Shown here one piece after another: positions 19,923 to 19,973 of a stretch of 64,000 nucleotides of DNA. The notes under the pieces were generated by a model, which ran no database searches, was not told where the DNA came from, and saw nothing but the letters and a program-made list of their open reading frames with translations. The stretch lies in the NCBI GenBank assembly GCA_951406725.2, contig OX597824.1, positions 15,686,001 to 15,750,000 on the forward strand, read 5' to 3'. This stretch comes from Octopus vulgaris (Eukaryota). Every line of letters begins with the position of its first letter. Position 1 is the first letter of the stretch. The position numbers were made by a program, and so were the translations under genes.

Positions 19923-19973
19923 TTTGTCAGTGAACAGGTCGCGGTTTCAAAGCGACGAAAATATTTTGACAAA
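19923..19973 (+). ncRNA. Hammerhead ribozyme motif, G3:C8 variant
   Basis: uuuguca GUGAACA g GUCGC-gguuucaaa-GCGAC GAAA AUAUUU ugacaaa; 7-bp stem I, 5-bp stem II, palindromic stem III. Confidence 0.75.

Follow-up and report, generated by a model that had tools for sequence, protein, structure and literature searches.

The DNA at positions 19923–19973 of the stretch analysed here (the window, 64,000 nucleotides from Octopus vulgaris) has the layout of a minimal type I hammerhead ribozyme in which the 3:8 core pair is G3:C8 and not C3:G8. The motif occurs throughout a family of Penelope-like elements, hereafter family A, and judged by its sequence it is a known type of ribozyme in a natural G3:C8 form, present in the window within an ordinary truncated retroelement copy. 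Our preferred reading, which we regard as probable rather than secure, is that the motif is the hammerhead of this Penelope-like family, naturally G3:C8 and likely still a slow ribozyme, whose activity would depend on dimer formation or on a protein.

The interest of such a motif lies in the history of the 3:8 pair, which was established through laboratory swaps and for which natural support, in the accessible parts of the literature examined, is limited to U3:A8 and U3.G8. In this regard, thousands of G3:C8 copies, together with homologous families in which the pair is the usual one, would make the evidence from natural covariation complete. Searches built on CUGAnGA necessarily overlook whole families of this kind, and Rfam returns no match here either. 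Moreover, the existence of related families that differ in their core, together with transcript and ORF starts that can be mapped from the copies, makes the role of the hammerhead testable.

Architecture of the motif

The features of the window copy are collected in Table 1. With respect to the CUGAnGA consensus, the core departs at positions 3 and 8, which are reversed yet complementary, and retains U4, G5, A6 and A9. The other hallmarks of the fold, namely G12-A13-A14, A15.1-U16.1, an NUH cut site and the G10.1-C11.1 pair, are all present (19957–19960, 19965, U19966, and 19938 with 19956). A folding program predicts stems I and II with pair probabilities of 0.6–0.9. Stem III would consist of two pairs around a 2-base loop, to which the same program assigns a pair probability of 0.0 in the single molecule and a weak duplex form; since this stem is unable to fold alone, a second RNA molecule would be needed to complete it.

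Table 1. Features of the family A copy, numbered from the first base of the window
Feature	Position	Strand	Remarks
5'-short copy of Penelope-like element end (family A)	19911–20115	+	205 bp, inserted in TA microsatellite
Stem I, 5' strand	19923–19929	+	Pairs with 19967–19973, 7 Watson-Crick pairs
Core positions 3–9, GUGAACA	19930–19936	+	G3 = 19930, C8 = 19935, replacing C3 and G8
Extra unpaired G between A9 and G10.1	19937	+
Stem II and 9-base loop II	19938–19956	+	19938–19942 with 19952–19956, 5 pairs; G10.1-C11.1 closing pair
G12-A13-A14	19957–19959	+
Self-complementary AAUAUU, A15.1 to U16.1	19960–19965	+	Candidate intermolecular stem III
U17, predicted cleavage site	19966	+	Cut on 3' side; basis: consensus position
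Stem I, 3' strand	19967–19973	+
First 31 codons of family A RT + GIY-YIG ORF	20023–20115	+	Frameshifted near end in window copy
Proximal fixed 3' end	20051–20059	+	49/120 arms end there
Distal fixed 3' end	20108–20115	+	63/120 arms end there
Optional 'tail' between fixed 3' ends	from 20051–20059 to 20115	+

Much of this anatomy had been anticipated. The original prediction described a stem I of 7 bp, a GUGAACA core, a stem II of 5 bp and cleavage after 19966; the stems and core are all found, and the cut position coincides with that expected from the consensus. It overlooked the unpaired G at 19937, and the GAAA and AAUAUU that it named are both there with one A (A15.1) common to the two. The 'perfect helices' that it claimed are an apt description of stems I and II, but not of stem III.

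Family A and the state of its core

The window copy runs from 4 bases past the fixed 5' start of the family to the distal fixed 3' end, and belongs to a dispersed repeat with 2,575 candidate copies, of which 40 were scored (the window copy included) at 92–100% over ~205 bp. Exact matches to a 17-base pattern spanning the core number 6,746, with a control pattern matching once; the entire motif is present at 5,250 places, against none for its control, and similar flanks without G3 give 284 matches. To these may be added arms that were unselected for the core, drawn by means of a 21-base pattern lying downstream; of its 10,442 matches, 90 from the first 100 listed were used. Among the 64 such arms that reach the core, G3 is found in 62 and C8 in 60, and the exact GUGAACA is found in 58 of 72 arms, a set that partly overlaps the 64. 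G3:C8 is the state of family A. The check proposed at the outset, namely that paralogs should retain the structure with GUGAACA as their consensus, has come out in favour of the motif.

Between the subfamilies of family A the motif differs at 5 of the 9 positions of loop II, whose sequence is variable, and at 1 of 42 positions elsewhere. The latter is the sole common variant outside the loop, an A to G change at 19969 that yields a U.G wobble in stem I. Downstream of the motif 3 of 49 positions vary between subfamilies, a rate about as low as that of the core. As the downstream flank is about as constant, the low variation of the core is not by itself strong evidence of selection.

Mismatched cores do occur. 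In a set of 135 arms that includes loci chosen for lacking G3, G3.G8 is seen in 4 (two of them 97% alike) and C3.C8 in 3, and these copies may represent intermediates of the swap or losses that came after it. Family A copies with mismatched cores lie at L230, L259, L316, L370, L083 and L084, and some of these cores are common to several copies. Direct repeats of ~9–13 bases flank other copies (L018, L019, L024, L026 and L017) and have, by eye, the appearance of target-site duplications. A search for further families that combine G3:C8 with another stem III gave 297 matches against 324 for its control and thus detected none, the pattern being blind to any stem III that starts with AA.

The autonomous element

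The autonomous partner of family A was reached by way of copies that extend further upstream (810 matches) and lead into an ORF. In one long copy, L363, the sequence that makes up the window copy runs on into this ORF in a manner resembling the start of the frame of family D, a sister family described below, and the window copy is identical to the repeat–ORF junction of L363 at 180 of 205 bases (88%). In a second copy, L361, an open frame of 1,025 aa contains the RT motif YVDD and a GIY-YIG domain (Pfam PF01541, E 1.8e-5, residues 915–1005), the latter preceded in the element's protein by a cluster of cysteines, and the hammerhead motif lies 1,007 bases past the stop codon. L363 has the order motif–ORF–motif in a direct repeat arrangement. 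Young copies that encode RT + GIY-YIG carry the G3:C8 motif within their terminal repeats, at 93 bases upstream of the start codon and ~1 kb beyond the stop, and the element has the terminal repeats, formed by partial tandems and bearing a hammerhead, that mark Penelope-like elements.

Six of the nine family A stretches that were fetched carry the G3:C8 motif, one of them at 73% protein identity; the other three comprise one with G3.G8, one with a deletion in the core and one without the motif in range. Copies with 98–99% protein identity and arms that are 99.9% alike point to recent movement of the family. No complete, unbroken ORF was seen for family A, L361 being cut at its 5' end and L363 containing a stop. 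Pfam made no RT call on the family A ORF, and a comparison with solved structures gave no match to it; a 524-aa part of it aligns, at E 1e-8, to a protein of the same genome in which Pfam does call RT and GIY-YIG. A search for the partner by way of the GIY-YIG family returned other Penelope families, with U3:A8 motifs, and not family A. One candidate, a direct pair 3.4 kb apart at L339, was rejected because it arose by duplication in place and lacks an RT frame. A young Penelope-like family with two ORFs (L116 and L117) was also seen, with a 781-aa RT + GIY-YIG frame, many intact copies and a U3:A8 hammerhead in its terminal repeat.

Sister families and covariation of the 3:8 pair

Family D is an autonomous sister family with full frames of 1,312 aa, 54% identical to family A over 814 aa, and its terminal repeat holds a homologous motif with C3:G8 (4,642 matches). 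At position 9 of this motif C stands in 86 and A in 10 of the first 100 matches listed. Two older families, B and C, have stems I and II as in family A. The core of family C is C3:G8 (196 matches), and that of family B is in the majority UUGAUGA, which contains a U3.G8 wobble (L134–L163, for example L154:1665–1712, minus strand).

When 15 copies from the four families are aligned, positions 3 and 8 are C-G in 7, G-C in 5 and U-G in 3, and are unpaired in none; double changes are found in stems I, II and III as well. In the alignment 85% of cells are paired, against 22–45% in slid controls, although the copies are hand-picked and related, representing about four lineages, and the control is not a probability. 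As read from these alignments, the contrast between families A and D is natural covariation of the 3:8 core pair, since family D retains C3:G8 and each of the three stems has compensatory changes. This agrees with the original claim that the two departures from the canonical core are mutually compensatory, insofar as G3:C8 is still complementary and sister families with equivalent stems carry C3:G8 or U3.G8. As C3:G8 is the general state, we infer that G3:C8 is the derived one.

Outside the motif, families B and C are clearly homologous to each other, and family A resembles both weakly. Family A arms reach at least 3 bits against B and C in 13 and 7 of 30 cases respectively, against 0 and 1 of 600 shuffles, and the window copy itself scored no match to either family outside the motif. 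Given this weak homology, the link between family A and these families rests mainly on the motif and on the family D protein.

Copy ends and the origin of short copies

The ends of the copies were surveyed in 76 insertions, comprising 120 arms. Back-to-back insertions, with an inverted 5'-short arm, account for 41 of the 76, and 112 of the 120 arms end at one of two 3' sites ~60 bases apart; two fixed 3' ends and back-to-back arms have been described for Penelope elements (PMC8557442, PMC11167929). At the other end, 58 of the 120 arms start within 19911–19915. Nine arms start at 19967–19975, and a single one starts exactly at the predicted cut, at a junction with matching bases from the opposite arm. 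No head-to-tail arrays of the 205-bp unit were found among the 76 insertions sampled.

The fixed 5' start falls at the sequence AGATG, with TATATAT lying 30 bases upstream. In 18 of the 34 short arms that extend as far as the AGATG, this is preceded by a G, at a place where long copies have C or T; after removal of one duplicate locus the count of this non-templated G is 17 of 33 (P = 5e-5 against 20%). Reverse transcriptases can copy a cap and thereby add an extra base. From the fixed 5' start, and with the extra G read as a copied cap, we infer a capped transcript whose first base is the A of AGATG, ~17 bases upstream of stem I. In Drosophila Penelope a promoter is known within the terminal repeat (PMC2377424). 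The fixed 5' end also has a branch-point-like and pyrimidine-rich sequence before its AG, which prompted a reading of it as a splice acceptor; this is disfavoured, in that the short copies have no common upstream exon sequence and a single extra G.

These ends suggest how the short copies may arise. Transcription would start at the A of AGATG to give a capped RNA, within which the RT of the element would start ~30 or ~90 bases into the ORF, the site at 20051–20059 being the apparent first start site of reverse transcription, and would copy back to the cap. Such internal priming, followed by copying to the cap, would yield short copies like that of the window, which would then be a passive by-product, and is in any case an ordinary truncated insertion. 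As the copies begin at the apparent capped start and not at the cut site, uncut RNA would be the main template. For the anole element studied by Frangieh et al., internal priming was shown in vitro, and unprocessed RNA was found to be the main template (PMC11167929).

Cleavage and the alternative readings

In the preferred reading, cutting after U19966 would require either the pairing of two RNA copies through AAUAUU or help in folding from the protein of the element, and the 3:8 pair would be kept for its part in holding base 8 in place for catalysis. Cutting would then trim tandem read-through RNA or strip the cap from part of the mRNA. Every core base of the family A motif other than 3 and 8 is canonical. 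In a Penelope hammerhead the C3G/G8C double mutant partly restores cutting, the protein of the element being needed as well (PMC11167929), and the same double mutant is partly active in a second system (PMC8495972); minimal Penelope hammerheads are in general weak in vitro (PMC4209133). We regard some residual cleavage activity, dependent on a dimer or on protein, as probable. In two sequencing runs of RNA (1,074 and 881 reads, ~6% of each run and from many copies) the reads cover both strands equally and their ends accumulate at no one place, and among the 120 arms there is no sign in the genome of copies derived from cut RNA. Viral hammerheads have a role in translation start (PMC13725137), and by analogy such a role is possible for the family A motif, given its position near the start codon.

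The main competing explanation is that the motif descends from a hammerhead and has lost cleavage, its fold now serving as a protein-binding or promoter element of the 5' leader, or simply being carried along, with G3:C8 having become fixed by drift in a successful master copy. It is the less probable explanation but one to be taken seriously, as it accounts readily for the uncut RNA behind the genomic copies and for the lack of any accumulation of RNA read ends. A passage from C3:G8 to G3:C8 by single changes must also cross a mismatch, and mismatched copies exist; family D, moreover, carries A9C. To this may be added that insertion in vitro is independent of cleavage (PMC11167929). What it explains poorly is the fit of all remaining core positions to the consensus, the pairing of 3 with 8 in all 15 aligned copies in three different forms, and the retention of G3:C8 across subfamilies whose RT is 73% identical, besides the partial activity of the double mutant in both systems noted above. 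The preferred reading can be extended to propose that a large and recently mobile lineage, having passed through the purine–pyrimidine reversal of the 3:8 pair, settled on G3:C8 in a ribozyme that still works but is deliberately slow, placed within the first 60 bases of a capped mRNA, and that with its sisters it shows self-cleavage tuned down. This we hold to be doubtful. If true, the sister lineages (C3:G8 with A9C, and U3.G8) would be Penelope elements that tune down self-cleavage, leaving the bulk of their RNA intact to be translated and copied, and they would form a natural series with which the role of the ribozyme in Penelope elements could be tested.

Two further readings dispute the nature of the repeat or of the motif. 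Short copies far exceed long ones (10,442 downstream matches against 810 with upstream sequence), and animal retrozymes have type I hammerheads with a palindromic stem III (bioRxiv 10.64898/2026.07.22.740005), as might be expected if the repeat were an independent non-coding element, a retrozyme or SINE, spreading by way of circular or tandem RNA that the ribozyme cuts. Yet at its 3' side the repeat consists of the beginning of a Penelope ORF, longer copies continue into the RT + GIY-YIG frame, the 76 insertions include no head-to-tail arrays, and the copies start at the apparent capped site rather than at the cut. The loci L361, L362 and L363 largely refute this proposal, which is very improbable. 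Least credible of all is a chance look-alike, or a lone decayed copy of a canonical hammerhead. The folding energy, taken alone, is indeed unremarkable (z −1.52, with 18 of 200 shuffles equally good), and the Rfam hammerhead families give no match at gathering score in the window and none at E up to 10 in 19400–20500; these models also miss a canonical-core minimal motif at 19584. A motif-strict descriptor has 1 match in the window and 2 in 100 shuffled windows. The core is nevertheless common to thousands of copies and covaries with homologous motifs whose cores are canonical, such that copy number, the counts of G3 and C8 in the arms, and covariation rule this reading out. The family copies and the sister families are, at the level of sequence, the strongest support for the motif. 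Rfam matches to microRNAs in the same search were dismissed as microsatellite noise.

Comparison with known systems

The comparisons that follow draw on the accessible portions of the papers cited. The hammerheads in the terminal repeats of animal Penelope elements (Cervera and de la Pena 2014, PMC4209133) share with family A the type I layout, an extra base between A9 and G10.1, the G10.1-C11.1 pair, a short palindromic stem III that needs a dimer, a place in the terminal repeat and an occurrence mostly as single short copies. Stem I is longer in family A, at 7 pairs. The 56 representative motifs of that paper have C3:G8, U3:A8 or U3.G8, and none has G3:C8, in contrast to the motif described here; the rarity of natural G3:C8 cores, as originally claimed, agrees with this. 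In the literature examined, G3:C8 cores appear as engineered cases only (PMC11167929, PMC8495972, PMC3884650), a coverage that is partial and does not establish absence from print.

The anole Poseidon element PAc (Frangieh et al. 2024, PMC11167929) is the closest parallel in its workings, with a hammerhead beside the ORF start, AT-rich targets, a tail delimited by two internal sites at which reverse transcription starts, and uncut RNA as the main template. Its C3G/G8C form is however engineered and partly active, whereas the family A pair is natural sequence, and the ORF of PAc starts inside the ribozyme, in contrast to the 93 bases after the core in family A. Natural core variants (Perreault et al. 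2011, PMC3088659) also covary at positions 3 and 8, but the natural change reported there, to U3-A8, keeps the pyrimidine–purine order, which G3:C8 reverses. Animal non-LTR retrozymes (bioRxiv 10.64898/2026.07.22.740005) similarly have a type I hammerhead linked to Penelope-like elements; these are non-coding tandem units, whereas the family A repeat forms the end of an element that codes for protein.

Related features elsewhere in the window

A second minimal hammerhead lies at 19506–19730 (core at 19584) in a different repeat. It has a canonical CUGACGA core, an extra A and a stem II of 4 pairs, and its type has 11 further matches among the fetched loci. A copy of the family D end occupies 48250–48550 (core at 48313), with the core CUGAUGC (A9 to C) and C17, and further pieces lie at 514–658 and 51085–51308. 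The coding part of family D has weak DNA matches (68–76%) at 35405–35599 and 42947–43047, which are probably decayed pieces of related elements.
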